Shown here: one piece after another, positions 1,613 to 29,809 of the stretch
How the letters are laid out: the number at the start of each line of letters is the position of its first letter
Position numbering within the stretch: position 1 is the first letter of the stretch
Assembly (NCBI GenBank): GCA_016235445.1
Contig: JACRLB010000032.1
Span: 10,373-74,372, forward strand
Direction of reading: 5' to 3'
Length of the DNA: 64,000 bases
Origin: Chloroflexota bacterium
GTDB taxonomy: Bacteria > Chloroflexota > Anaerolineae > Anaerolineales > Villigracilaceae
Made by a program: the position numbers and the translations under genes
Notes under the pieces: generated by a model
What the model was told of the DNA's origin: nothing
The model's input: only the letters and a program-made list of their open reading frames with translations
Database searches by the model: none

Positions 1613-1643
1613 AAGCATCCCGTCGCAAGGCGGGATGCTTCTT
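1613..1643 (+). terminator. Intrinsic terminator
   Basis: aagcatcccg/cgggatgctt 10-bp stem followed by ctt, just after the nucleotidase stop. Confidence 0.75.
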
Positions 1644-1691
1644 GTCATATCGATTTGTAAATTCAGCTTCCCTATTCAACGAAGTTAAAAA

Positions 1692-2174
1692 ATGAAAAAA
1701 ATCTTCCCGTTCATATTTTTGTACCTGGCCGCGTGCGCCCCTCTTTCAATGCCTACAGCCCCAACGCTTATTGTTGATCAATATCCAACCCTGCTTCCCA
1801 CCCCAACGCTGGCGGTTCAGATTAAAGTCATTGAAGGGGATGAAAGGGAGGAAGCTTTGAATTTTTTTTATGAATTGAAGATTCATATGGCGGCCGGGGA
1901 ATATCATCACCTCTCAGATGAAATTCGATATCCAATCACTATCAATGTGGACGGGAAGCCAAAATCTTTCGTATTCGCCGCTGAACTGGAGGCGAATTTT
2001 GATAAAATCTTCAGCAAAGAAGAAATTAAAACATTTATTTCCACCGACGAATCGGAGCTCACCTTCACGGCAAATGGCGTAAAGGTGGCGGACGGAATCT
2101 TATGGTTCGATCTGATCTGCATGGACCCTGCCTGTGAACATGCTGAGTTTTTGATTACAGAAATAGATAATTAA
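1692..2174 (+). CDS. Hypothetical lipoprotein
   Basis: MKK-hydrophobic-LAAC lipobox, Pro/Thr linker, acidic globular domain. Confidence 0.75.
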   Translation: MKKIFPFIFLYLAACAPLSMPTAPTLIVDQYPTLLPTPTLAVQIKVIEGDEREEALNFFYELKIHMAAGEYHHLSDEIRYPITINVDGKPKSFVFAAELEANFDKIFSKEEIKTFISTDESELTFTANGVKVADGILWFDLICMDPACEHAEFLITEIDN

Positions 2175-2261
2175 AAAACGTTCAAAAATCAACGGGCGGA
2201 GATACTGTTGATGAGACCCAGCACGATCACGAGTCCATACTTACGCAGTTCAAAATCTTTA

Positions 2262-2418
2262 GAGAGCGTTTCTTAAGTTCTTATCGCCTTCTTTTTGTAC
2301 ACGGATTTTCACGGAAAAGACGGAAAAGAGCGGCTTTTTTTATTGTTTCTTCCGTGAATTTCAGTACGCGAAGCATCCGTGCTGTCCATGTCCCAAAAAA
2401 GAGTTAAGAAATAGTCTC
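2262..2418. mobile_element. MITE-like element with IS5/IS1031-like ends
   Basis: Imperfect TIRs gagagcgtttcttaa / ttaagaaatagtctc, TTA on both flanks, internal 9-nt-periodic palindrome. Confidence 0.55.
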
Positions 2419-2559
2419 TTAGCCGCGAATTGCGTGAATTCCTGCTAATTTTTTCTCTACCGTACATGCAAATAAAGGCCTCCTTTTCCCTCACAGATTC
2501 CCGATTCGCCGAAAATATCTTTAGGGTTTCGTGTAAGGCAGAGAATTGAAAATTAGGGA

Positions 2560-2619
2560 AAATATTTATGATATTTATCTAATATATTGACAAGAAGATA
2601 CCGGGCAGTTATACTGCCC
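2560..2619 (+). promoter_or_regulatory. sigma70 promoter of sufR with two candidate operators
   Basis: TTGACA (2587-2592), 17 bp, TATACT (2610-2615). Palindrome AAATAT-N5-ATATTT at 2560-2576. GGGCAGT-tat-ACTGCCC (2603-2619) overlaps the -10. Confidence 0.8.
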
Positions 2620-2622
2620 AGT

Positions 2623-3249
2623 ATGAAATCTACGCGAGATAAAATTTTACAGACTTTACTGCGAAAACCACGCTCAACCATTAACGATCTCGCCGAAGCA
2701 GTCGGCATTAATCCCATATCCGTGCGCCATCACCTCACCAACCTCCAAATGGAGGGGCTTGTGGAAGGACAGGAAGAGCGCCATGGAGTGGGACGCCCGC
2801 GCCTGGTATATCTCCTCACCGATGAAGGCATGGAGCACTTCCCCACCCGCTACATGAAATTGACTACACGACTACTTTCTCAGATGAAGGAAACCATGCC
2901 GGGGCCGGTCGTGGCTAAATTATTCAACCAGATCGCTGAAGACCTGGCCAGCGAATATACCGAGGATATGAAAAATCTGAGTATGGAAGAACGCCTTGAC
3001 TTTGTCAAAGAAATGCTGGCGCAGGAAGGCTTCACCGTAGAATGGGAGAAAAAGGGCGGGCAGTATCATATCCACGAAATCTCCTGTCCATACTATCAGA
3101 TCGGCGTGGCGCATCCCGAAGTCTGCACCGTGGATCAGACCCTGATCTCAAAAATGCTCGCCCTGCCTGCCAACAAGGTGCAATGTATTTTGGATGGCGG
3201 CGCGCATTGCACCTATGTTGTACAGCCAGCGGAAGTAAAGAGCAAGTAA
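2623..3249 (+). CDS. sufR: SufR-like HTH transcriptional regulator with C-terminal Cys (Fe-S) motif
   Basis: N-terminal wHTH (VRHHLTNL, GVGRPRLVYLLT). C-terminal CPY-x10-C and CILDGGAHC. Followed by sufT. ATG 2623 preferred over TTG 2587, which is the -35 box. Confidence 0.75.
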   Translation: MKSTRDKILQTLLRKPRSTINDLAEAVGINPISVRHHLTNLQMEGLVEGQEERHGVGRPRLVYLLTDEGMEHFPTRYMKLTTRLLSQMKETMPGPVVAKLFNQIAEDLASEYTEDMKNLSMEERLDFVKEMLAQEGFTVEWEKKGGQYHIHEISCPYYQIGVAHPEVCTVDQTLISKMLALPANKVQCILDGGAHCTYVVQPAEVKSK

Positions 3250-3274
3250 ACACCCTTATTAACCCAGAGGAACT

Positions 3275-3619
3275 ATGAGCGAAGAAATTAAAGAAATTCA
3301 GTGGAGCATTCACACCACCCACCCTGAGATCGTGCAACAGGCTCGCGCAAGTCTGTCAGAGGTGGTAGACCCCGAAATTGGAATGACCATCATCCAGTTA
3401 GGTTTGATCCGAAACGTCGAAATTGAAAACGGCGTGGGGCATGTCAAGATGATCCTCACAACGCCCTTTTGCCCTTATGGCCCTGCCATGATCGAAATGA
3501 CCAAAGCCAAAGCCACCGAAGGACTGAACATGCCCGTCACCATAGACATGGGCATGGAAATGTGGGATTTCTCCATGATGGAAGACCCCTCCGCGCTGGA
3601 TTGGGGAATGTACGCGTAA
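3275..3619 (+). CDS. sufT: Metal-sulfur cluster assembly factor (DUF59/SufT/MIP18 family)
   Basis: VVDPEIG-x-IIQLGLI and MILTTPFCP motifs. Confidence 0.85.
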   Translation: MSEEIKEIQWSIHTTHPEIVQQARASLSEVVDPEIGMTIIQLGLIRNVEIENGVGHVKMILTTPFCPYGPAMIEMTKAKATEGLNMPVTIDMGMEMWDFSMMEDPSALDWGMYA

Positions 3620-3751: not shown

Positions 3752-4399
3752 TCATTCTCCCTTTTTCCAGTGCATGGAATGTGGTTGTTCGCCTTCTGCG
3801 AAACCTGAAATGATGATCAAGGCGTTGGTCACATTCGTGCCAGGGTTTCGCCAGCGATGGCTTAGCTTGGACGCGAACAAAAGACTATCACCCGCTTCGA
3901 GGTGGAATAATTCCTTCTCTACATAATAATCCAACTGGCCGCGCAGGCAGAAGACAAACTCATGGCCGGTATGCACCATGCTGTGCGGGCCGCTGGAAGA
4001 GCCGCTTTCCAGCGTAAGCATGAACGGCTCCACCCTTCCTATAAACTGCTCCCCACCCAAAGCCTCGAACACGCCCCGCGTAAATGACATGCGCGTGCGC
4101 TCGTCCGATTTCAAGAACACCATCTGCTTCTTTTCAGTTTCCACACCGAAGAACGCAGTGATCGAAACCCCCAAAGCGTCTGCCAATTTATAGAGTGTGC
4201 TCACAGAAGGCGAGGTTTTCCCGCGTTCAATCATCGAAAGCGCGTTGGCCGACAAACCGCTTTTCGTGCCGAGCGTGCGCATGGAAATCCCCCGCGCCTC
4301 GCGCAGTTCACGCAAACGGGACGCCACATCCACTGATACTGCTTCTCGCTGAAATGCTTCCATTTGTTCCTCCGGGCTTGGGGGGTTGCAAATATTCAT
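3752..4399 (-). CDS. XRE-family HTH regulator with C-terminal cupin domain
   Basis: LRELREARG...LSMIERGKTSPSVSTLYKLA HTH and HTGHEFVFCLRG...H cupin motif. Exact start uncertain. Confidence 0.88.
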   Translation of the reverse strand: MNICNPPSPEEQMEAFQREAVSVDVASRLRELREARGISMRTLGTKSGLSANALSMIERGKTSPSVSTLYKLADALGVSITAFFGVETEKKQMVFLKSDERTRMSFTRGVFEALGGEQFIGRVEPFMLTLESGSSSGPHSMVHTGHEFVFCLRGQLDYYVEKELFHLEAGDSLLFASKLSHRWRNPGTNVTNALIIISGFAEGEQPHSMHWKKGE

Positions 4400-4538
4400 C
4401 CAAAGCCTGCCAAATTATACCCAATTTTTATATGACATTAAACGAAACTTAAGATGACACAATCCACTATTGTACAAACTGTCACAATATTATGATGGGG
4501 GTGCAAATATTCGTTTATTCACATATAAGCAGGCTCAC

Positions 4539-4886
4539 ATGGTCACCCCTACCCTAAAACAGGAAATCACCCAACTCGAAGCCAACTTCTGTGCGGCGCT
4601 TTCAGACCCGAATCGCCTTCTCATTTTATACTCCCTCAGCGAAGGGCCGCGCAACGTAACCGAACTTGGGATTGAACTCGGGTTGAACCAGCCCACTACA
4701 TCGCGCCATCTCAAAGTCCTGCGTGAGCGGGGGCTGGTACACACCGTCCGCACAGGCACAATCATCACCTATCATCTTTCCGATCCAAGACTCATTCAGG
4801 CGCTTGATTTATTACGAAACGCGATGCGCGACAGACTCGCACACCAGGCAAACCTGATTAATGAAGTTTCACAGGAGAATGTATGA
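4539..4886 (+). CDS. ArsR/SmtB-family transcriptional regulator
   Basis: ALSDPNRLLIL...NQPTTSRHLKVLRERGLV. Stop overlaps the start of the next gene (atga). ATG 4539 preferred over TTG 4470. Confidence 0.9.
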   Translation: MVTPTLKQEITQLEANFCAALSDPNRLLILYSLSEGPRNVTELGIELGLNQPTTSRHLKVLRERGLVHTVRTGTIITYHLSDPRLIQALDLLRNAMRDRLAHQANLINEVSQENV

Positions 4887-6319
4887 AAAACCGCTTCCCT
4901 TCATGGACCTTGGGACTGCTCGGCATAATTTTGCTGATTCTCGTCCCGGTCATTTACTACCTACCCCGCGCCCAATCCAGGAACGACCCTGCGGCTTACC
5001 TGCCCACAAAAGCCGTGCATGTGGATCACAAAGACATCGTCAACGGCGAATTCAAAACAGGGCAGGAAGTAACCCGCGCCTGCCTCGAATGCCACGAAGA
5101 CGCCGCAACGGAATTCATGAAAACCACACACTGGACATGGGAATCAAAACCCTTCGATGTCCCCTGGCGCGACGAAGATGTGACCATCGGCAAAGCCAAC
5201 CAGATCAACAACTTCTGCATCGGCTCACAAGGCAATGAAGTGACCTGCACCGCCTGTCATGCAGGCTACGGCTGGGAGCAGGGGCGCGAAGCCCAGCAAG
5301 CCAACCCCGAAAATGTGGACTGCCTCGCCTGCCATGCCGACCTCGGCTCATACACAAAGAGCAAATACGGCAACCCCGCCGAAGGCGTTGACCTGCTCGC
5401 CGCGGCGCAAAGCGTGCGCGCTCCCACCCGCGAGAACTGCGGAAAATGCCACTTCGATGGCGGCGGCGGCAACGGCGTCAAACACGGCGACCTCGACGAG
5501 AGCCTGTACTTCCCTGGCGAATCACTCGATGTTCACATGGGCGGCGAAGCAAACATGCAATGCACCGACTGCCATTGGACGGAAAACCACCAAATTCTCG
5601 GGCGCATGATCGCAGATAATTACACCATCGACCCCGAAGAACAAGTTTCCTGCGAACAATGTCACGTCGACCAACAGCACAAAGATGAACGCATCAACAC
5701 CCACCTTGCATCCGTTGCCTGCCAGACCTGCCACATTCCCGCAATCGCTCTCGAAGACCCCACCAAAGTCACTTGGGACTGGTCACAAGCGGGTCAGGAA
5801 GGACGCGAGGACGACCACTTCACCTACCTCAAGATCAAAGGCGAATTCGTCTACGAAAAGAACTTCACGCCCACCTATCTTTGGTTCAACGGCAATAACG
5901 AATATCGCTACATCCTCGGCGACCCGCTCGGCAAAGACGGCATCACCTACATCAACAAGCCTGCTGGAAATATCGAAGATGTAACTGCAAAGATATTCCC
6001 GTTCAAACTGCACATCGCCAAACAACCCTACGATGTAAAAAATAATTACCTGCTTCAACCCGTCACATCTGGCAAGGATGGATTCTGGACCACCTTCGAT
6101 TGGAACAGCGCCTTCGAACTCGCCGTACCCATCACAGGCCTCGCTTACAGCGGCGAATACGGCTTCACTGAAACCTACATGTACTGGGCAACCACCCACA
6201 TGGTGCAACCCGCAGACAAAGCCTTGCAATGCGAATCATGTCACGGCGAAAACGGCCGCATGGACTGGGCCGCCCTCGGTTACCCTGGCGACCCAATTGA
6301 ATGGGGCGGAAGAAAATAA
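4883..6319 (+). CDS. otr: Octaheme c-type cytochrome, tetrathionate reductase (OTR) family
   Basis: Eight CxxCH motifs (CLECH, CTACH, CLACH, CGKCH, CTDCH, CEQCH, CQTCH, CESCH), OTR signatures IGK-x5-NNFC and GGGG-x3-KHGDL, N-terminal membrane anchor/signal. Confidence 0.88.
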   Translation: MKNRFPSWTLGLLGIILLILVPVIYYLPRAQSRNDPAAYLPTKAVHVDHKDIVNGEFKTGQEVTRACLECHEDAATEFMKTTHWTWESKPFDVPWRDEDVTIGKANQINNFCIGSQGNEVTCTACHAGYGWEQGREAQQANPENVDCLACHADLGSYTKSKYGNPAEGVDLLAAAQSVRAPTRENCGKCHFDGGGGNGVKHGDLDESLYFPGESLDVHMGGEANMQCTDCHWTENHQILGRMIADNYTIDPEEQVSCEQCHVDQQHKDERINTHLASVACQTCHIPAIALEDPTKVTWDWSQAGQEGREDDHFTYLKIKGEFVYEKNFTPTYLWFNGNNEYRYILGDPLGKDGITYINKPAGNIEDVTAKIFPFKLHIAKQPYDVKNNYLLQPVTSGKDGFWTTFDWNSAFELAVPITGLAYSGEYGFTETYMYWATTHMVQPADKALQCESCHGENGRMDWAALGYPGDPIEWGGRK

Positions 6320-6366
6320 ATGGTAATTAGTAATCGGTAATTACCATTTACCAATTACTAATCCAA

Positions 6367-9075
6367 ATGGAACCGACTATGAAACGATACTCCCTCACAA
6401 TCATTGGACTTCTCCTCCTCGCCCTCGCCATTGGATTTGGCCCCGCTCTCGCCTCGTCCGCGCCTGCTCCAGCCTCACAGGCTTCGACACTACACCCGAA
6501 CTTTATCCTGCTCGATGCAGACGGCGCGAACGTGCTCGAAAGCGGCAGTGCCGTCTCCACCATGCAAACCTGCGGACAATGCCACGACACCGATTTCATC
6601 GCCTCGCACGCATTTCACTCCGACCTGGGATTGGCTGATTATGCCGCATCGAAAGAATCATGGGATGCAAGCACAGGCACGTTTGGTCAATGGAATCCGC
6701 TCACCTATCGCTACCTCTCGCAAGACGGCGATGAACGGCTGGACCTCTCCACCGCTGAATGGTTAATGCTGAACGGCGAAAGAGTCGTCGGCGGCGGACC
6801 AGCTACAACGTCACGCAATGATGCGCCGCTCGCAGATGTAAAAGTCAGCAGGGAAAATCCCGAAACGTCCATCTTGAAAAATGGAAGCCCCACAACCTGG
6901 AACTGGGACAAATCCGGCACGATGGAAATGAACTGCTTCCTCTGCCACCTTGAAACTCCCAACACCGAAGCGCGCGCTGAAGCCATTCACGCAGGCGAGT
7001 TTGGCAATGCCAACACCGCCACTTTGATTGGCTTGAATGTGGTCAATAAATCCAGCGAAGGCTGGGTATGGAATCCTGAATCCTTCAACGAGAATGGCGA
7101 ACTCAAAAGCGAGTTCATCGGCATTCAAGACCCCACCAATGCAAACTGCGCCACCTGTCACGGTGAAGTTCACCCCGAAACGGAAGAGCCGCTCACCCTC
7201 AACGCCTGTGATTTGGATTATCCACAAACTGCCACAACAGGCCAGGTCGTCAGCGGACAGCGCATCAACGAGTCTGGCGTAAACCTGACAGACAAAAATA
7301 ATATCGAGCGTTCATGGGATATTCACGCCGAACGACAACTGCAATGCACAGATTGTCACTACGCTTTGAACAACCCTGCACATGCCAGCGAATTGCAAAG
7401 CAATAATCCCGAGCATCTCGTCTACGACCCGCGCTCGCTGGAGATTGGTGAATATCTCGAAAGACCAGACCATAACTTCGCGCGCGGCGAAAGCGCACAA
7501 TTCAACGTGGCTCCCGAATACAAGGGCACCATGCGCCGCTGTGAAAACTGCCACGACGCCAGCAAGGGACATGCAAACTGGCTTCCATACATCGGAACGC
7601 ACATGGACGCAGTCGCCTGCGAAACCTGCCACATCCCGCAGATGTACGCGCCTGCCATCCAAACCTACGACTGGACTGTCATCACGACAAGCGGTACAGC
7701 GGTTGAAACCTGCCGCGGCGTGGATGGCGACCCGAACGCAGTGACATCTCTGGTGACTGGCTACGAGCCTGTTCTGCTCAACCGCACGAACATCGACGGC
7801 GACACTTTGCTCGCGCCGTACAATCTGATTACGTCCTTCTACTGGGTGTACGATGACGCCAATGGAAACAAACGCCCCGTCCGCCTGGTTGATCTCGAAG
7901 CCGCGTATCTCGAAGATGGAAAATATGCGGCAGACATCGCCGCCGCATTTGACTCAAACGGCGACGGCAAACTCGCCTCGAATGAATTAACGCTTGACTC
8001 TGCCGCAAAGACCGATGTGGTCAAAACAAAACTTGCCGCGCTGGGTTTGAACAACCTGCGCATCGAAGGCGTGGTACAGCCGTACAGCATCAACCACAAC
8101 GTCACACGCGGAGACAGCGCCATCAATGACTGCAAAGCCTGTCACAACGAAAACTCACGCATGTCACAGCCGATCAAACTCACAGACTCTGCGCCCGTCC
8201 TGCCTATTTTTGACGCGGCTAACAACGTCAACAACAGCGGCGAATTTGTCACGGACGCGGATGGCGCGTTGTATTACCAGCCCATGCCCGCCGAAGACAA
8301 CTTGTATGTCTTCGGCTCCAGCCGCGTCAATTGGGTGGATTGGTTCGGCGCGATTGCATTTGCGGGTTCGCTCTTAGGTGTGATCGGGCATGGGACGCTG
8401 AGATATCTCTCGTCGCAGAAACAGCCCAAGGGTCAGAAAAGAACCGAGCGGATTTATATGTACGACACGTATCGCCGCTTCTGGCATTGGTTACAGACCT
8501 CGTCCATCGTCATCCTGTTGTTTACAGGCTTGATCATTCACAGACCCGATATTTTCGGTGCGTTCTCGTTCCGCGGTGTGGTGACGGTGCATAACGTGGT
8601 GGCGGTCATCCTTGTGATCAACGCGGCGTTGTCGTTGTTCTATCACATCACGACGGACAGAATTCGGGAGTTCATTCCGCATCCGTATGGGTTTTTCGAT
8701 GATGCGATCGTCCAGGCCAGGTATTACATCGGTGGAATATTCAAGGGCGAAGCTCACCCCTTCGAAAAACTGCCAACCAGCCGCATGAATCCCATTCAGA
8801 AAATGACCTACTTCATGATCTTGAACGTGCTGTTGCCTTTGCAAACCATCACAGGCGCGTTGATGTGGAGCGTGCAAAAGCGGCCTGAGTTCGCAAATGC
8901 GCTCGGCGGACTGCCTTTCCTTGCGCCGTTCCATTCGCTCGTGGCGTGGATGTTTGGCACGTTCATCCTCGTGCATGTGTATATGACCACCACTGGCGCA
9001 ACTCCGCTCGAAGCGATGCGCGGGATGGTGACGGGGTATGAAGAAGTGGAAGTGCATGAGAGCAAGGATGAATGA
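6367..9075 (+). CDS. Heptaheme cytochrome c fused to a C-terminal cytochrome b (FdnI/PhsC/HupC-like) membrane domain
   Basis: Signal peptide; seven CxxCH motifs; C-terminal TM domain with RFWHW, TVHN, NPIQK, FHS and VHVY His motifs. Start may be 6379 (MKRYSL). Confidence 0.85.
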   Translation: MEPTMKRYSLTIIGLLLLALAIGFGPALASSAPAPASQASTLHPNFILLDADGANVLESGSAVSTMQTCGQCHDTDFIASHAFHSDLGLADYAASKESWDASTGTFGQWNPLTYRYLSQDGDERLDLSTAEWLMLNGERVVGGGPATTSRNDAPLADVKVSRENPETSILKNGSPTTWNWDKSGTMEMNCFLCHLETPNTEARAEAIHAGEFGNANTATLIGLNVVNKSSEGWVWNPESFNENGELKSEFIGIQDPTNANCATCHGEVHPETEEPLTLNACDLDYPQTATTGQVVSGQRINESGVNLTDKNNIERSWDIHAERQLQCTDCHYALNNPAHASELQSNNPEHLVYDPRSLEIGEYLERPDHNFARGESAQFNVAPEYKGTMRRCENCHDASKGHANWLPYIGTHMDAVACETCHIPQMYAPAIQTYDWTVITTSGTAVETCRGVDGDPNAVTSLVTGYEPVLLNRTNIDGDTLLAPYNLITSFYWVYDDANGNKRPVRLVDLEAAYLEDGKYAADIAAAFDSNGDGKLASNELTLDSAAKTDVVKTKLAALGLNNLRIEGVVQPYSINHNVTRGDSAINDCKACHNENSRMSQPIKLTDSAPVLPIFDAANNVNNSGEFVTDADGALYYQPMPAEDNLYVFGSSRVNWVDWFGAIAFAGSLLGVIGHGTLRYLSSQKQPKGQKRTERIYMYDTYRRFWHWLQTSSIVILLFTGLIIHRPDIFGAFSFRGVVTVHNVVAVILVINAALSLFYHITTDRIREFIPHPYGFFDDAIVQARYYIGGIFKGEAHPFEKLPTSRMNPIQKMTYFMILNVLLPLQTITGALMWSVQKRPEFANALGGLPFLAPFHSLVAWMFGTFILVHVYMTTTGATPLEAMRGMVTGYEEVEVHESKDE

Positions 9076-9124
9076 TGAATTATGAAGGATGAATTTTCCT
9101 TCGTGTTTAGAAAAGGAATCTGAA

Positions 9125-9670
9125 ATGACCACTCAAACGAGAAAATCAATATTCAACCGCCCTGAAAAATCATACGTGCATCCATACTTTGGCGGAGTTG
9201 TACTTGGAATTGTGTTGTTCCTGGCCTTCTTCCTCACCGGCAACGGGCTTGGCTCATCGGGCGCAACCAGCCGCATCGACGCGGCTATCGTGGATGCGAT
9301 CTCCCCCTCGCACGTGGATAACAACCCCTATCTATTGAAGATGGCGGGCGGCGAGAAGAATCCGCTGGATGATTGGATCGTGCCTGTATTCTTCGGCGCA
9401 CTGCTCGGCGGCTTTTCATCAGGCTTTTTCAATGGACGCTTGAAATTCATGACCACCAAAGGCCCCAACATCTCGGACCGCACCCGCTGGTTGATGGCTT
9501 TCCTCGGCGGTGTGATCTTTCTCTACGGCGCACGCCTGGCTCGCGGATGCACCTCCGGACAGGCGCTTTCGGGCGGGGCAACTCTCTCGGCAGGTTCGTG
9601 GGTGGTCATGTTCGCCATCTTCGGCGGAGCGTACGGCGTGGCGTATTTTGTTCGGAAATTTTGGAACTAA
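9125..9670 (+). CDS. YeeE/YedE (TsuA-like) sulfur-compound transporter, half-size
   Basis: Hydrophobic protein with GLGSSG and GARLARGCTSG motifs. ATG 9125 follows aaagga. Confidence 0.85.
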   Translation: MTTQTRKSIFNRPEKSYVHPYFGGVVLGIVLFLAFFLTGNGLGSSGATSRIDAAIVDAISPSHVDNNPYLLKMAGGEKNPLDDWIVPVFFGALLGGFSSGFFNGRLKFMTTKGPNISDRTRWLMAFLGGVIFLYGARLARGCTSGQALSGGATLSAGSWVVMFAIFGGAYGVAYFVRKFWN

Positions 9671-9788
9671 CATGGAACTTTTTACCACAAAGTGTCACGA
9701 AGGTACACAAAGTATTACTTGGGGTTTCCTTTGTGACCCTTCGTCTCCTTCGTGGTAAAGATTTTCCAACACCTTCAGGAGAAACATA

Positions 9789-11090
9789 ATGAACTTTCCC
9801 CTCCCCTCTCTCAACGCAGTCAGCGCAGCCAACCCGTGGACGTACGTTCTCTTCGCCGCCATCGGTTTCGCGTTCGGCTACACACTTGAAATGTCTGGCT
9901 TTGGCGATTCGCGCAAACTCGCCGCGCAATTTTATTTCACAGAGATGACCGTGCTCAAGGTCATGTTCACCGCCATCACCGTGGCAATGGTTCTGCTCTT
10001 CGGCGCGGTCGGCCTCGGCCTGCTGGATTTCAGCCAGGTCTGGGTCAACCCCACCTACCTCGCCTCTGGCATCGTCGGCGGACTCATCATGGGCGTGGGC
10101 TTCATCGTCGGCGGGTTCTGTCCCACCACCTCGCTGGCCTCCGCATCCACAGGCAAGATCGACGGCATGTTATTCATGCTCGGCGGATTTGTCGGCGCGT
10201 TCCTCTTCGGTGAAACCGAAAAATATTTCGACGGCTGGTACACCAACGCAGGCTATTTCGGACGCCTCACCCTCGACCAGGTCTTCGGCATTCCCGTCGG
10301 CGCGGTGGTGCTGATCGTCATTTTGATGGCTCTGTTTATGTTCTGGGGTGGGGAACAATTGGAGCGCATCTTTGGTAAAAGGGATTTGGCAAAGGAACCC
10401 AGGCTGAGGGTCGTCGGAGGCGTGGCCCTCTTCGCGGCGGCAGTGGCAGTGCTGGCAATCGGCAGTCCCTCACTCGCAGACCGTTACAACAAAGTCACCT
10501 TCACCCGCACCGAAACCGTCGAACAGTTGAACGCAGACCCCATCGTCAACACCTATGTTTACACTGCGGACGAAATGCTCGCCAACCGACTGGTCTTCAC
10601 CTCGCCTGCCGAGGCCTTCAAGGCAAAATACAACCAGTCCATGAATCCCGTTTATCTCGATGTGCGCTCCGAAGCGGACTACAACCTGTATCACATCGAA
10701 GATGCGGTCAACGTGCCGCTCGAACGAATGCTGGAAGTTGTGCCCGTGCTGTTGAGTGAGCCGCCCGCGAACACGGTTTTCATTTTGATAAGCAACGATG
10801 AAGCCGCCGCCGTGGATACGTGGAAACTGCTGGTAGGATCGAGCGTGCAAAATGTGTACATCCTCGAAGGCGGAGTGAATAACTGGATCGCGTTCTTTGG
10901 CAACGATGACAAAACGCTTCATCCCAACCCGAATGCTGGTGACGACCAATTGGGCTATCTCTTCCCTGCCGCATTAGGCAGTCGCTACGAGTCATGCTCG
11001 CCAGACCCGATCGAATATGAAAAACTTGAATTCGAGCAAAAGATCAAATTGCAATTGAAGCGGGATAAAAGCGGAGGCGGGTGCGGGTAG
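9789..11090 (+). CDS. YeeE/YedE protein fused to a rhodanese-like domain, C-terminal GGGCG
   Basis: FGYTLEMSGF and GFIVGGFCP YeeE motifs; LDVRSEADYNLYHIEDAVNVP and VYILEGGVNNW rhodanese motifs. Confidence 0.82.
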   Translation: MNFPLPSLNAVSAANPWTYVLFAAIGFAFGYTLEMSGFGDSRKLAAQFYFTEMTVLKVMFTAITVAMVLLFGAVGLGLLDFSQVWVNPTYLASGIVGGLIMGVGFIVGGFCPTTSLASASTGKIDGMLFMLGGFVGAFLFGETEKYFDGWYTNAGYFGRLTLDQVFGIPVGAVVLIVILMALFMFWGGEQLERIFGKRDLAKEPRLRVVGGVALFAAAVAVLAIGSPSLADRYNKVTFTRTETVEQLNADPIVNTYVYTADEMLANRLVFTSPAEAFKAKYNQSMNPVYLDVRSEADYNLYHIEDAVNVPLERMLEVVPVLLSEPPANTVFILISNDEAAAVDTWKLLVGSSVQNVYILEGGVNNWIAFFGNDDKTLHPNPNAGDDQLGYLFPAALGSRYESCSPDPIEYEKLEFEQKIKLQLKRDKSGGGCG

Positions 11091-11137
11091 GGGTGGTTGG
11101 AGATTAGAGAATTAGAGATTAGAGATTGGTAATTGAG

Positions 11138-11173
11138 GAAGACTCCTGAGGTTTCGGGAGTCTTCTTTTTTTT
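11138..11173 (+). terminator. Intrinsic terminator closing the otr operon
   Basis: gaagactcc/ggagtcttc stem followed by a T8 tract. Confidence 0.85.
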
Positions 11174-11197
11174 GGAAGATATACTTCACGCGGGTCG

Positions 11198-11412
11198 GGG
11201 TGCGGACTAAAGTTTCGGAAATGTGGCGCAAGTCTCTGACTTGCGAGGCAAATCAGAGATTTGCCTCGCGCGGAGTGCCGAAAAAATATTCCACACCCAG
11301 TCCCCGGGTGCGGACTAAAGTTTCGGGAATGTGGCGCAAGTCTCTGACTTGCGAGGCAAATCAGAGATTTGCGCCGCGCGGAGTGCCGAAAAATATTCCA
11401 CACCCAGTCCCC
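11198..11412. repeat. Tandem dimer of a ~101-bp palindromic element (period 108 bp)
   Basis: Near-identical units start at 11198 and 11306. Each has imperfect terminal IRs and, in unit 1, a perfect 12-bp hairpin gcgaggcaaatc/gatttgcctcgc. Confidence 0.9.
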
Positions 11413-29726: not shown

Positions 29727-29727
29727 G

Positions 29728-29809
29728 TGCGCTGGAGAGGACTTGAACCTCCACGTCTTACGACACACGCACCTCAAGCGTGCCTGTCTGCCAATTCCAG
29801 CACCAGCGC
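29728..29809 (-). tRNA. tRNA-Leu (anticodon GAG), CCA not encoded
   Basis: Reverse complement gcgctggtgctggaattggcagacaggcacgcttGAGgtgcgtgtgtcgtaagacgtggaggttcaagtcctctccagcgca: acceptor stem, long variable arm, GGTTCAA T-loop. Confidence 0.95.

Follow-up and report, generated by a model that had tools for sequence, protein, structure and literature searches.

Within a 64,000-nucleotide stretch of contig JACRLB010000032.1 (referred to here as the window), which comes from a Chloroflexota bacterium of the order Anaerolineales, positions 4539 to 11090 of the forward strand carry five genes that encode an ArsR-type regulator, an octaheme cytochrome c of the OTR family, a fusion of a multiheme domain with a cytochrome b, and two YeeE-type half proteins, the second of which ends in a rhodanese-like domain. 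By means of two fusions, six functional parts are packed into the four structural genes. The reading that we favor, and to which we give somewhat better than even chances, is that of an autoregulated operon for an extracytoplasmic, quinone-linked machine for sulfur redox chemistry and uptake, in which sulfur would be held on a cysteine-bearing arm, processed in the reductive direction, and handed over to a membrane channel. The electron path is strongly indicated and the sulfur nature of the substrate moderately so, while the direction (most likely reductive, from quinol to a sulfur compound) and the exact substrate are only weakly indicated.

The open reading frame (ORF) of the regulator can be read from 4470 or from 4539 to 4886; its start was set at 4539, where the ATG encodes Met24 of the long ORF and from where the homologues are conserved, and the protein counts 115 residues from there. 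Its stop codon overlaps the start of the OTR gene (4883-6319) in the sequence ATGA at 4883-4886. The fusion gene (6367-9075) is composed of a heptaheme part (6367-8340) and of a linker plus cytochrome b part (8344-9075), and is followed by the first YeeE half (9089-9670; probable real start at M13, position 9125) and by the second one with its rhodanese extension (9789-11090; YeeE part 9789-10463, rhodanese-like domain 10464-11048, arm 11049-11090). An intrinsic terminator closes the operon at 11135-11176, with a hairpin at 11135-11168 (15-bp stem with 6 GC pairs, 4-nt loop) followed by a T-run; RNAfold yields -34.6 kcal/mol for the region 11075-11200 that includes it. A first-pass annotation, made from the letters of the window, had described five co-oriented genes closed by a strong terminator, 15 CxxCH motifs, a b-type cytochrome domain, two YeeE proteins and a terminal GGGCG, and all of these features were recovered: the ORFs all lie on the + strand, the pattern count gives 8 motifs in OTR and 7 in the fusion, PF01292 matches once and PF04143 twice, and the last protein ends in SGGGCG.

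OTR was reportedly crystallized in 2004, and the product of the second gene can be placed in this family with confidence. It matches TIGR04315 (‘tetrathionate reductase family octaheme c-type cytochrome’) with 552 bits (cut-off 375) and aligns end to end with the whole mature OTR of Shewanella oneidensis (SO_4144, structure 1SP3; E 3.4e-133). The eight CxxCH motifs, at C67, C122, C147, C186, C227, C257, C280 and C450, are each at least 99% conserved, and the heme-2 ligand Lys56 and the active-site Cys64 of 1SP3 align to K104 and C112, both 99% conserved. The catalytic design common to the two proteins, a Lys-ligated heme 2 with a neighboring Cys, is retained, and the window OTR is predicted to be catalytic. 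A hydrophobic N-terminal segment (residues 3-32) should function as a membrane anchor or export signal; the Shewanella protein, in contrast, is soluble, periplasmic and presumed to be fed by CymA (PMC12949373), while its counterpart in the window is predicted to be membrane-anchored and has dedicated partners. The physiological function of OTR has never been established, according to a 2026 paper (PMC12949373).

The first of these partners is itself of OTR ancestry. The N-terminal part of the fusion protein (6367-8340, approximately 640 residues) begins with a signal peptide and carries seven CxxCH motifs, and a comparison of its family with the OTR family by hhalign gives a probability of 97% (E 4e-11, 416 columns). 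The seven motifs align to OTR hemes 1 and 3-8, while the columns of the heme-2 motif, its Lys and the active-site Cys are unoccupied; 11 conserved His residues outside the motifs are available for bis-His ligation. The initial description as a heptaheme domain consequently stands with respect to the number of hemes, but the notion of a generic multiheme domain gives way to that of a pruned OTR paralogue. Since this paralogue lacks the catalytic heme 2, it is predicted to act as an electron wire. The same pruning is found in MmcA of Methanosarcina acetivorans, the conduit of the Rnf complex, a seven-heme OTR relative devoid of the Lys-ligated second heme that has been shown experimentally to conduct electrons (bioRxiv 10.1101/2023.04.20.537704). 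The window domain differs from MmcA in its large insertions, in being joined to a diheme cytochrome b rather than to Rnf, and in being paired with a catalytic OTR; its match to TIGR04314 (MmcA) is weak (52.5 bits, cut-off 250), so that it is not an MmcA orthologue, and that to TIGR04315 is weak as well.

A linker transmembrane (TM) helix (residues 660-678) and a four-helix diheme cytochrome b (residues 690-902) make up the remainder of the fusion protein (8344-9075), with PF01292 matching residues 699-890 (77.1 bits, cut-off 30.1). The best NCBIfam match of this region is PhsC (NF011582; 130.9 bits, under the equivalog cut-off of 204), and no gene for a molybdoenzyme of the PhsAB type is present in the operon. 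Four His residues, H707, H742, H856 and H870, show no variation among homologues, whether fused or unfused, and follow the ligand pattern of HyaC/FdnI, with one His each in TM1 and TM2 and a pair in TM4 spaced 14 residues apart; a profile match to the cytochrome b of Escherichia coli Hyd-1 (HyaC, structure 4GD3; E 3.8e-7) aligns the His residues of TM1 and TM4. Lys and Arg (K/R) residues number 8.0 and 7.7 in the predicted cytoplasmic loops versus approximately 1 in the outer loops (73-76 homologues). It is thus strongly predicted that the four-helix core has both termini in the cytoplasm, with the heme c domain outside and one linker helix in between, and, equally strongly, that the cytochrome b is the interface with quinol or quinone. 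The proposal that the extracytoplasmic heme proteins are linked to quinol is supported by this predicted location and by the quinone-interacting diheme cytochrome. A comparable gateway to the quinone pool is CbcL of Geobacter, in which a diheme cytochrome b of the HydC/FdnI type is linked to a periplasmic multiheme c domain with nine hemes. The window protein departs from CbcL and from the PhsC/HyaC/FdnI type in that it has seven OTR-derived hemes, not nine, and serves a heme enzyme instead of a molybdoenzyme or a hydrogenase.

Both remaining structural genes encode halves of a YeeE-type channel. PF04143 (YeeE/YedE, ‘sulphur transport’) matches the product of gene 4 with 76.4 bits over profile positions 162-309 and that of gene 5 with 57.7 bits over positions 11-196 (cut-off 27 in both cases). 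The gene-4 half has four TM helices, with both termini predicted to be cytoplasmic (mean K/R in predicted inner segments of 3.5, 4.4 and 1.8), and a Cys, C154 (ARGCTSG), that is 91% conserved. The gene-5 half also has four TM helices, an invariant Cys, C111 (GGFCPTT), and an H7-like fifth helix, after which a K/R-rich loop (residues 188-206) leads to a sixth helix (residues 207-225) predicted to take the chain back outside; mean K/R is 7.95 in predicted inner and 1.45 in outer segments (73 homologues). C154 and C111 are equivalent to Cys293 and Cys91 of StYeeE, respectively, and gene 4 would correspond to PmpA (C-half of YeeE) and gene 5 to PmpB (N-half), which are half-size YeeE proteins with one Cys each (PMC11582611, Dahl and colleagues). 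Both window halves are longer than the approximately 130 residues of PmpAB, and they differ further from PmpA/PmpB and YeeE in that one of them bears two extra helices and an external carrier domain, and in that the pair is always coupled to a multiheme enzyme. TsuA belongs to the same PF04143 family, but is a single chain of approximately 330-350 residues with nine TM helices and three conserved Cys, as opposed to two chains with one conserved Cys each; TsuA models score only 17-25 bits on the window halves (cut-offs 400-645), and the operon has no gene for a cytoplasmic partner of the YeeD/TusA type.

StYeeE has an N-half that begins outside, a helix H7 at which the topology is reversed, and a cytoplasmic loop between H7 and H8 (PMC7449682). 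This architecture, taken together with the K/R-rich loop and the further helix of the gene-5 product, should place the rhodanese-like domain outside the cytoplasm, and such an outward orientation is strongly predicted. In unfused relatives, the YeeE N-half ends after helix 5 with a K/R-rich tail, and the rhodanese-like protein begins with an N-terminal anchor of its own. When PDB sequences were searched with a profile built on the last protein, rhodaneses alone were retrieved, and StYeeE was not among the matches; the topology therefore rests on Pfam half-mapping, on charge counts, and on the published description of StYeeE.

The YeeE halves also evoke the question of whether selenium, rather than sulfur, could be the element that is handled. 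OTR would then reduce selenite (or a tellurium oxyanion would take its place), the arm would bind selenium as a selenotrisulfide or selenopersulfide, and a YedE-like channel would import it. The top NCBIfam match of the YeeE halves is indeed the selenium-linked YedE/FdhT model, with E-values of 1e-7 in the window and 1.7e-12 in locus L084, from a ‘Deltaproteobacteria’ metagenome-assembled genome (MAG); the carrier weakly matches a rhodanese-related (seleno)protein model, and YedE-like proteins participate in selenium transport according to work cited in PMC11582611. These matches, however, are weak and lie far under the curated cut-offs (31-47 bits versus 350), no selD, selA/B or yedF was seen in the conserved neighborhood, and the module is abundant where selenium is a trace element, all of which makes a selenium-based function very improbable.

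In the C-terminal domain of the last protein, PF00581 matches residues 286-368 (42.4 bits, cut-off 22.2), and an AlphaFold2 model of residues 201-433, built from a diverse alignment, has a predicted local distance difference test score (pLDDT) of 92.9, with only the last 13 or so residues of low confidence; Foldseek retrieves rhodanese folds only, over approximately 100-115 residues, to which a beta-hairpin and an ordered C-terminal extension (F.AALG.R...P) are added. In the catalytic loop, which reads ISNDEAAA, the catalytic Cys of 6MXV aligns to a Ser in rhodanese structure alignments, the NDE at this site is conserved across the family, and residues 226-402, the domain core included, contain no Cys at all. 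The label of a YeeE/rhodanese protein that had been given to this gene therefore holds for the fold but not for the usual sulfurtransferase activity, the active-site Cys being absent and the domain predicted to face outward. What the protein does have is a C-terminal arm, flexible in the model, ...LKRDKSGGGCG, in which the penultimate residue, Cys432, is followed by one Gly and the stop codon. The KSGGGCG end is identical in 72 of 72 close homologues; more broadly, 103 of the top 150 50%-identity cluster representatives and approximately 98 of 115 family members end in GGCG or GGCGG, a few of the latter exactly in GGCGG. Among 63 stand-alone carriers the arm Cys is the only Cys in 42. Many of the 658 clusters described below are stand-alone proteins that consist, over approximately 205-215 residues, of an N-terminal hydrophobic anchor (...LIGQPT...), the NDE rhodanese-like domain and a conserved tail ending in GGCG or, occasionally, GGCGG. 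These features argue with moderate strength that the functional element is the Cys arm, in the role of a carrier, and not a usual sulfurtransferase site. The anchored, Cys-less rhodanese with a GGCG arm appears to constitute an unnamed carrier family whose occurrence is almost entirely limited to the vicinity of OTR. The ordered tail extension contains another Cys, C403 (ESCSP), which is 99% conserved in the fused subfamily of Anaerolineales and Proteobacteria and absent from most stand-alone carriers; Cys432 might pair with it in a disulfide or trisulfide, as happens between the two Cys of DsrC.

A Cys near the end of a flexible C-terminal arm is also the hallmark of SoxY in the SoxYZ-SoxXA system, where the arm is Gly-rich and ends in GGCGG, and of DsrC, the partner of DsrAB; in the Sox case, as in the arrangement proposed here, the carrier works outside the cytoplasm with a c-type cytochrome enzyme. 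The scaffolds are nevertheless distinct. Neither SoxY nor SoxZ is matched by the carrier in Pfam or NCBIfam, the window protein presents a Cys-less rhodanese fold without SoxZ, its putative partner enzyme is unrelated to SoxXA, and the carriers of this family are either membrane-tethered or fused to a transporter half. A 5'-nucleotidase/UshA-like ORF at 154-1590 was considered as a SoxB-type partner and rejected, since it scores 41.8 bits against a SoxB cut-off of 550 and is not conserved beside the module.

A scan of one genome per bacterial or archaeal species yielded 237 stretches that encode proteins related to the fusion; the 80 best loci were retained and searched with all five proteins by tblastn. 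The order OTR, fusion, YeeE half, YeeE half-rhodanese recurs in every locus with enough flank, and no gene is internally missing, all gaps being located at contig ends. Hosts are mostly Anaerolineales, joined by Beta- and Gammaproteobacteria that include the cultured sulfur oxidizer Parasulfuritortus cantonensis LSR1 (L074, on NZ_SJZB01000007.1). The regulator gene lies upstream of OTR in all Chloroflexota loci, and none was detected at E<=1e-5 in the Beta- and Gammaproteobacteria. The proteobacterial proteins (L066-L077; Burkholderiales, Lysobacterales, Parasulfuritortus) are 65-75% identical to the window proteins and 65-79% identical to those of Anaerolineales, which is far above the interphylum expectation and suggests that the four-gene block, without the ArsR gene, was recently transferred as a whole between phyla by horizontal transfer. 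A database of 90% clusters contains at least 1,701 entries related to the fusion and at least 4,464 related to the last protein.

A wider view was obtained by using the last 208 residues of the gene-5 product as a query against the representatives of all protein clusters, which gave 658 clusters at E<=1e-3, and by looking up ten genomic contexts of the carrier family. In eight of the ten, an OTR-like cytochrome and two YeeE halves directly precede the carrier; the two others (L088 and L092), judging by their alignment, are what is left of such a module after internal deletions. In distant lineages, the parts are separate or fused in other pairs (OTR with heptaheme, heptaheme with cytochrome b, YeeE half with rhodanese). 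The typical unfused order is OTR, a heptaheme protein with a C-terminal TM helix, a cytochrome b of approximately 210 residues, two YeeE halves and an anchored carrier, with each part 33-58% identical to the corresponding window part; in L093 heptaheme and cytochrome b are fused and the carrier is free. In L090 (1918-4890) and L091 (692-3643), single proteins of 983-990 residues with 15 CxxCH motifs unite OTR and the heptaheme paralogue in one chain, the OTR part being complete and 48-49% identical to that of the window, and two YeeE halves and a carrier follow downstream, with cytochrome b absent. The invariant core consists of OTR, the YeeE pair and the carrier, and the fusions tie OTR to the wire, the wire to the cytochrome b, and a YeeE half to the carrier. 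The genes are thus co-conserved across phyla with their parts joined by varying pairwise fusions, and the idea of a self-contained module, put forward in the first-pass annotation, is borne out.

Several of these loci display features of their own. A tetraheme cytochrome c3 gene is located upstream in L091. In L088, the beginning of the cytochrome b region is fused with the carrier end in one 306-residue protein (2507-3427), and in L092 (6100-7217) the N-terminal 140 residues of an OTR lie directly against a protein whose first residues fall within helix 5 of a YeeE half, with the GGCG end kept in both; L092 also has an ArsR gene and sulfate-activation genes upstream. An ArsR gene is again found upstream in L084, where OTR is present as two ORFs (1639-3099), one of 85 residues with heme motif 1 and one of 400 residues with the other seven motifs, which suggests a frameshift or an assembly error.

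Taken together, these elements lend themselves to the following working scheme. The diheme cytochrome b would exchange electrons with the menaquinone pool, and the heptaheme wire, fused to it via one linker helix, would pass them on outside to OTR, in the order quinol, two b hemes, seven c hemes of the wire, OTR, and the substrate at heme 2. The split PmpA/PmpB-like channel would sit beside OTR, with one half bearing the external Cys-less rhodanese-like scaffold and its GGCG arm. In the manner of SoxY or DsrC, the arm Cys would hold the sulfur substrate or product of OTR covalently, as a thiosulfonate, sulfonate or persulfide adduct; OTR would break or make an S-S or S-O bond, after which the channel would take the sulfur product into the cell. 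In a concrete cycle, the thiolate could attack tetrathionate, polysulfide or a polythionate to give Cys-S-S-SO3- or Cys-S-Sn-, OTR could reduce the S-S bond, and thiosulfate or sulfane sulfur could enter the channel; alternatively, sulfite could be converted to a persulfide on the arm, in line with the suggestion of sulfite from work on Shewanella sp. ANA-3 (PMC12949373). The occurrence of OTR beside a PhsC-like cytochrome b in Beggiatoa (PMC6449678) speaks for the scheme as well. PhsC is the closest model for the cytochrome b, and thiosulfate reduction of the PhsC type is driven by the proton-motive force; one might speculate that the low potentials reported for OTR hemes would suit an acceptor of low potential. 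The ArsR-type regulator would control the operon.

Three observations argue for sulfur on the arm Cys: the sulfur channel and the Cys arm are both obligatory parts of the module, the carrier family is confined to it, and, as an independent finding, a divergent soxY/soxZ pair adjoins otr in lucinid symbionts (PMC11237559). More tentatively, and as a possibility that we rate clearly below even, it can be proposed for the OTR family at large that the physiological substrate is not a free oxyanion but a sulfur adduct that a dedicated extracytoplasmic carrier bears on its C-terminal Cys arm, this carrier being the GGCG rhodanese scaffold here and a divergent SoxYZ elsewhere. Such a carrier-bound substrate, if real, would explain both the poor turnover of free tetrathionate in vitro and the lack of a tetrathionate phenotype in otr mutants, and would amount to an unrecognized carrier-based sulfur redox pathway whose product is handed directly to a YeeE-type channel.

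The same parts could in principle run in the opposite direction. OTR would then oxidize a low-potential donor such as sulfide, polysulfide or thiosulfate and load the sulfur onto the arm Cys, much as SoxXA loads SoxY; electrons would flow via the wire and the cytochrome b to quinone, and the PmpAB-like channel would import the carrier-bound sulfane sulfur for assimilation or further oxidation. Cytochromes b of the HyaC/FdnI type normally reduce quinone. The module is present in sulfur oxidizers such as P. cantonensis, OTR is found beside soxYZ in thiotrophic symbionts (PMC11237559), it also occurs in Beggiatoa, where a PhsC-like cytochrome b gene follows otr (PMC6449678), and import of zero-valent sulfur by PmpAB-like proteins has been reported, as cited in PMC11582611. 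The low potentials of the OTR hemes, reported to be similar to the range of -100 to -450 mV found for MmcA (bioRxiv 10.1101/2023.04.20.537704), also speak for oxidation. Against this stands the fact that all measured OTR activities are reductive, that of thiosulfate oxidase being very low (PMC12949373), and that electron transfer from thiosulfate, at the level of a tetrathionate-like product (+198 mV, a value cited in PMC8528874), would be uphill to menaquinone. Moreover, the top-scoring model for the cytochrome b is PhsC, a quinol oxidizer, and the hosts are mostly heterotrophic Anaerolineales, not lithotrophs. An oxidative operation is thus considered unlikely, and the reductive scheme is retained.

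A number of observations weigh against this reductive, sulfur-based scheme, beginning with the enzyme itself. For purified OTRs, tetrathionate is a far poorer substrate than nitrite and hydroxylamine (PMC12949373), and in Shewanella sp. ANA-3 the deletion of otr in a strain lacking ttr leaves the turnover of tetrathionate and trithionate essentially as in the ttr mutant (PMC12949373); tetrathionate, which had been put forward by inference as an example substrate, loses ground accordingly. Other points concern the model as a whole: the topology is a prediction, the assignment of YeeE N- and C-halves is ambiguous in NCBIfam, and an AlphaFold2 model of the whole last protein, from a shallow alignment (>=79% identity), is poor (pLDDT 51) and was not used. 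Since variants such as L090 and L091 lack the cytochrome b, the link to quinone is not universal. The ArsR protein has a single Cys, 89% conserved, without the known Cys pairs of sulfur or arsenic sensors, and scores 47.9 bits against a cut-off of 155 for BigR. With regard to expression, no RNA data from the same organism were found, the sequence being present only in DNA runs of groundwater metagenomes, and the contigs from RNA runs discussed below stem from relatives at 80-95% identity and may include DNA. These DNA runs, along with the names given to near-identical proteins, suggest that the host genome comes from groundwater.

The in vitro preferences of OTR lead directly to the suggestion that it could be a quinol-dependent reductase of nitrite or hydroxylamine, involved in detoxification or ammonification, with the YeeE pair and the carrier unrelated or accessory. 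Nitrite and hydroxylamine are its best substrates in vitro (PMC12949373, PMC11237559), OTR is structurally related to NrfA and HAO (PMC12949373), and several host MAGs, going by their record names, come from nitrogen-removal reactors. This suggestion has difficulty in accounting for the genomic contexts, every one of which, among those examined, combines the OTR-like cytochrome with two YeeE halves and a Cys-arm carrier, even in variants without cytochrome b, and for a carrier family that is essentially confined to the module. No nitrogen-metabolism gene is present in the conserved neighborhood, and the neighborhoods of one proteobacterial and one complete Anaerolineales locus hold no further sulfur or nitrogen genes. 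A nitrogen-oxide reductase is consequently regarded as improbable, and the earlier preference for a sulfur over a nitrogen substrate is favored by the obligatory YeeE pair and the Cys-arm carrier.

Parallels for the sulfur-based scheme exist among periplasmic sulfur reductases that are served by a dedicated membrane quinol dehydrogenase, such as the octaheme sulfite reductase MccA (SirA) of Wolinella and Shewanella, and Psr with Sud, a periplasmic rhodanese-type sulfur carrier. The difference lies in the quinol dehydrogenase, which is of the NrfD type (MccC or PsrC) in those systems and a diheme cytochrome b in the window, and in the rhodanese loop, where Sud has a catalytic Cys that is absent from the window carrier. 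The eight hemes of MccA superimpose on those of OTR (PMC12949373). Every domain family in the operon is known, single pieces of the arrangement have been noted before (in Beggiatoa, where otr is followed by a PhsC-like gene, and in symbionts, where soxYZ adjoins it), and the logic of quinol dehydrogenase, wire, terminal enzyme, carrier and channel has precedents; the carrier family is new. The claim that no operon of such architecture had been characterized agrees with our searches: the literature on OTR, YeeE/YedE, rhodaneses, PhsC-type cytochromes b, Anaerolineae and the SoxY arm yielded no description of the module, and NCBIfam contains no dedicated model for the heptaheme partner or for the carrier.

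Evidence for joint expression was obtained from four metatranscriptomes (sediment, sludge, ice), in which contigs 80-99% similar to the operon span all five genes, with coverage that drops to zero or near zero in both flanks. Every junction is bridged: ArsR/OTR by a joint from 4745 to 5033, OTR/fusion by joints from 6318 to 6404 and from 6268 to 6551, fusion/YeeE by one 1,944-nt contig that spans 8359-9050 and 9152-9666, and YeeE/YeeE by joints from 9669 to 9815 and from 9669 to 9819, as well as by another contig over 9206-9940. This contiguity supports co-transcription of the genes in relatives, with the provision that RNA-run libraries can contain DNA. Assembler depth over OTR (5002-6171) is several-fold above that of the downstream genes (6640-11085) in runs X8, X10 and X11 (in X8, 325 versus less than 20). 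This is a hint that transcript stability differs along the operon or that transcription ends early close to the OTR/fusion hairpin, although contig depth gauges expression poorly.

The regulator is a generic ArsR/SmtB protein, whose winged helix matches PF01022 (62 bits, cut-off 22) and NF033788 (77.5 bits, cut-off 55). Its Cys is read as lying ahead of the LSDPNRL helix, and not at the BigR position. An identity as the NCBIfam ‘TsoR’ was rejected (60 bits versus a cut-off of 115), and no literature on it was found. Upstream of ArsR, approximately 110 nt are conserved across Anaerolineales and form a putative control region (4433-4526, + strand) that is common to the ArsR gene and a divergent XRE-cupin gene. 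In this region, a TGACATT...ATGACAC pair lies at 4433-4460 and a promoter-like stretch at 4465-4496, while the ArsR start is immediately preceded by a conserved 20-nt imperfect palindrome, ATATTCGTTTATTCACATAT (4507-4526), which is a candidate ArsR operator. When the 150-nt segments that precede ArsR in 62 sequences are compared, TGACATT is present in 57, ATGACA in 50 and CGTTTAT in 45. A direct repeat, GGGGGT(T)GCAAATATTC (4381-4397 and 4497-4512), was rejected as the operator, since its core TGCAAATATT is found upstream in only 2 of the 62.

Further upstream lie genes for a SufR-like regulator (2587-3249, + strand), a SUF-associated SufT-like Fe-S assembly protein (3275-3619, + strand) and the XRE-cupin regulator (3752-4399, - strand). 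The position of the SufR-like/SufT-like pair and the divergent XRE-cupin gene upstream of the module is kept in approximately 41 Anaerolineales loci, and the genes downstream are not conserved. This neighborhood may reflect vertical synteny, or a link to sulfur supply for Fe-S assembly.

AT-rich palindromic hairpins, made of short repeated words such as GAGATTAGAG and GGTAATT, fill the intergenic spacers at 6320-6366, 9671-9788 and 11100-11127, with RNAfold energies of -18 kcal/mol (6300-6380) and -40.7 kcal/mol (9655-9800). Across 65 related loci, the OTR/fusion spacer holds a 50-70-nt hairpin of varying sequence in approximately one third, whereas the remaining loci have a spacer of just 2-12 nt. 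The view of the spacer hairpins (6320-6366 and 9671-9788) as conserved regulatory RNAs was consequently rejected, in keeping with the lack of an Rfam match; they look like small insertions resembling repetitive extragenic palindromes or miniature inverted-repeat transposable elements, or like mRNA stabilizers, outside the system proper. An Rfam scan of the whole 64 kb gave no family at gathering score, and the sole tRNA gene of the window is a tRNA-Leu (GAG) at 29727-29809 (- strand).

The role of OTR, obscure for approximately twenty years, becomes testable through these associations. In hundreds of species the enzyme is locked to a specific set of partners, and its obligatory neighbors are a sulfur channel and a Cys-arm carrier, not genes of the nitrogen cycle. 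The heptaheme domain would provide a second example, after MmcA, of an OTR pruned to a heme wire, and a cultured host of the module exists in P. cantonensis LSR1. The module is common and expressed in Anaerolineales of groundwater, activated sludge, sediments and ice, and may link these heterotrophs to an intermediate sulfur cycling that is widespread and has been overlooked.

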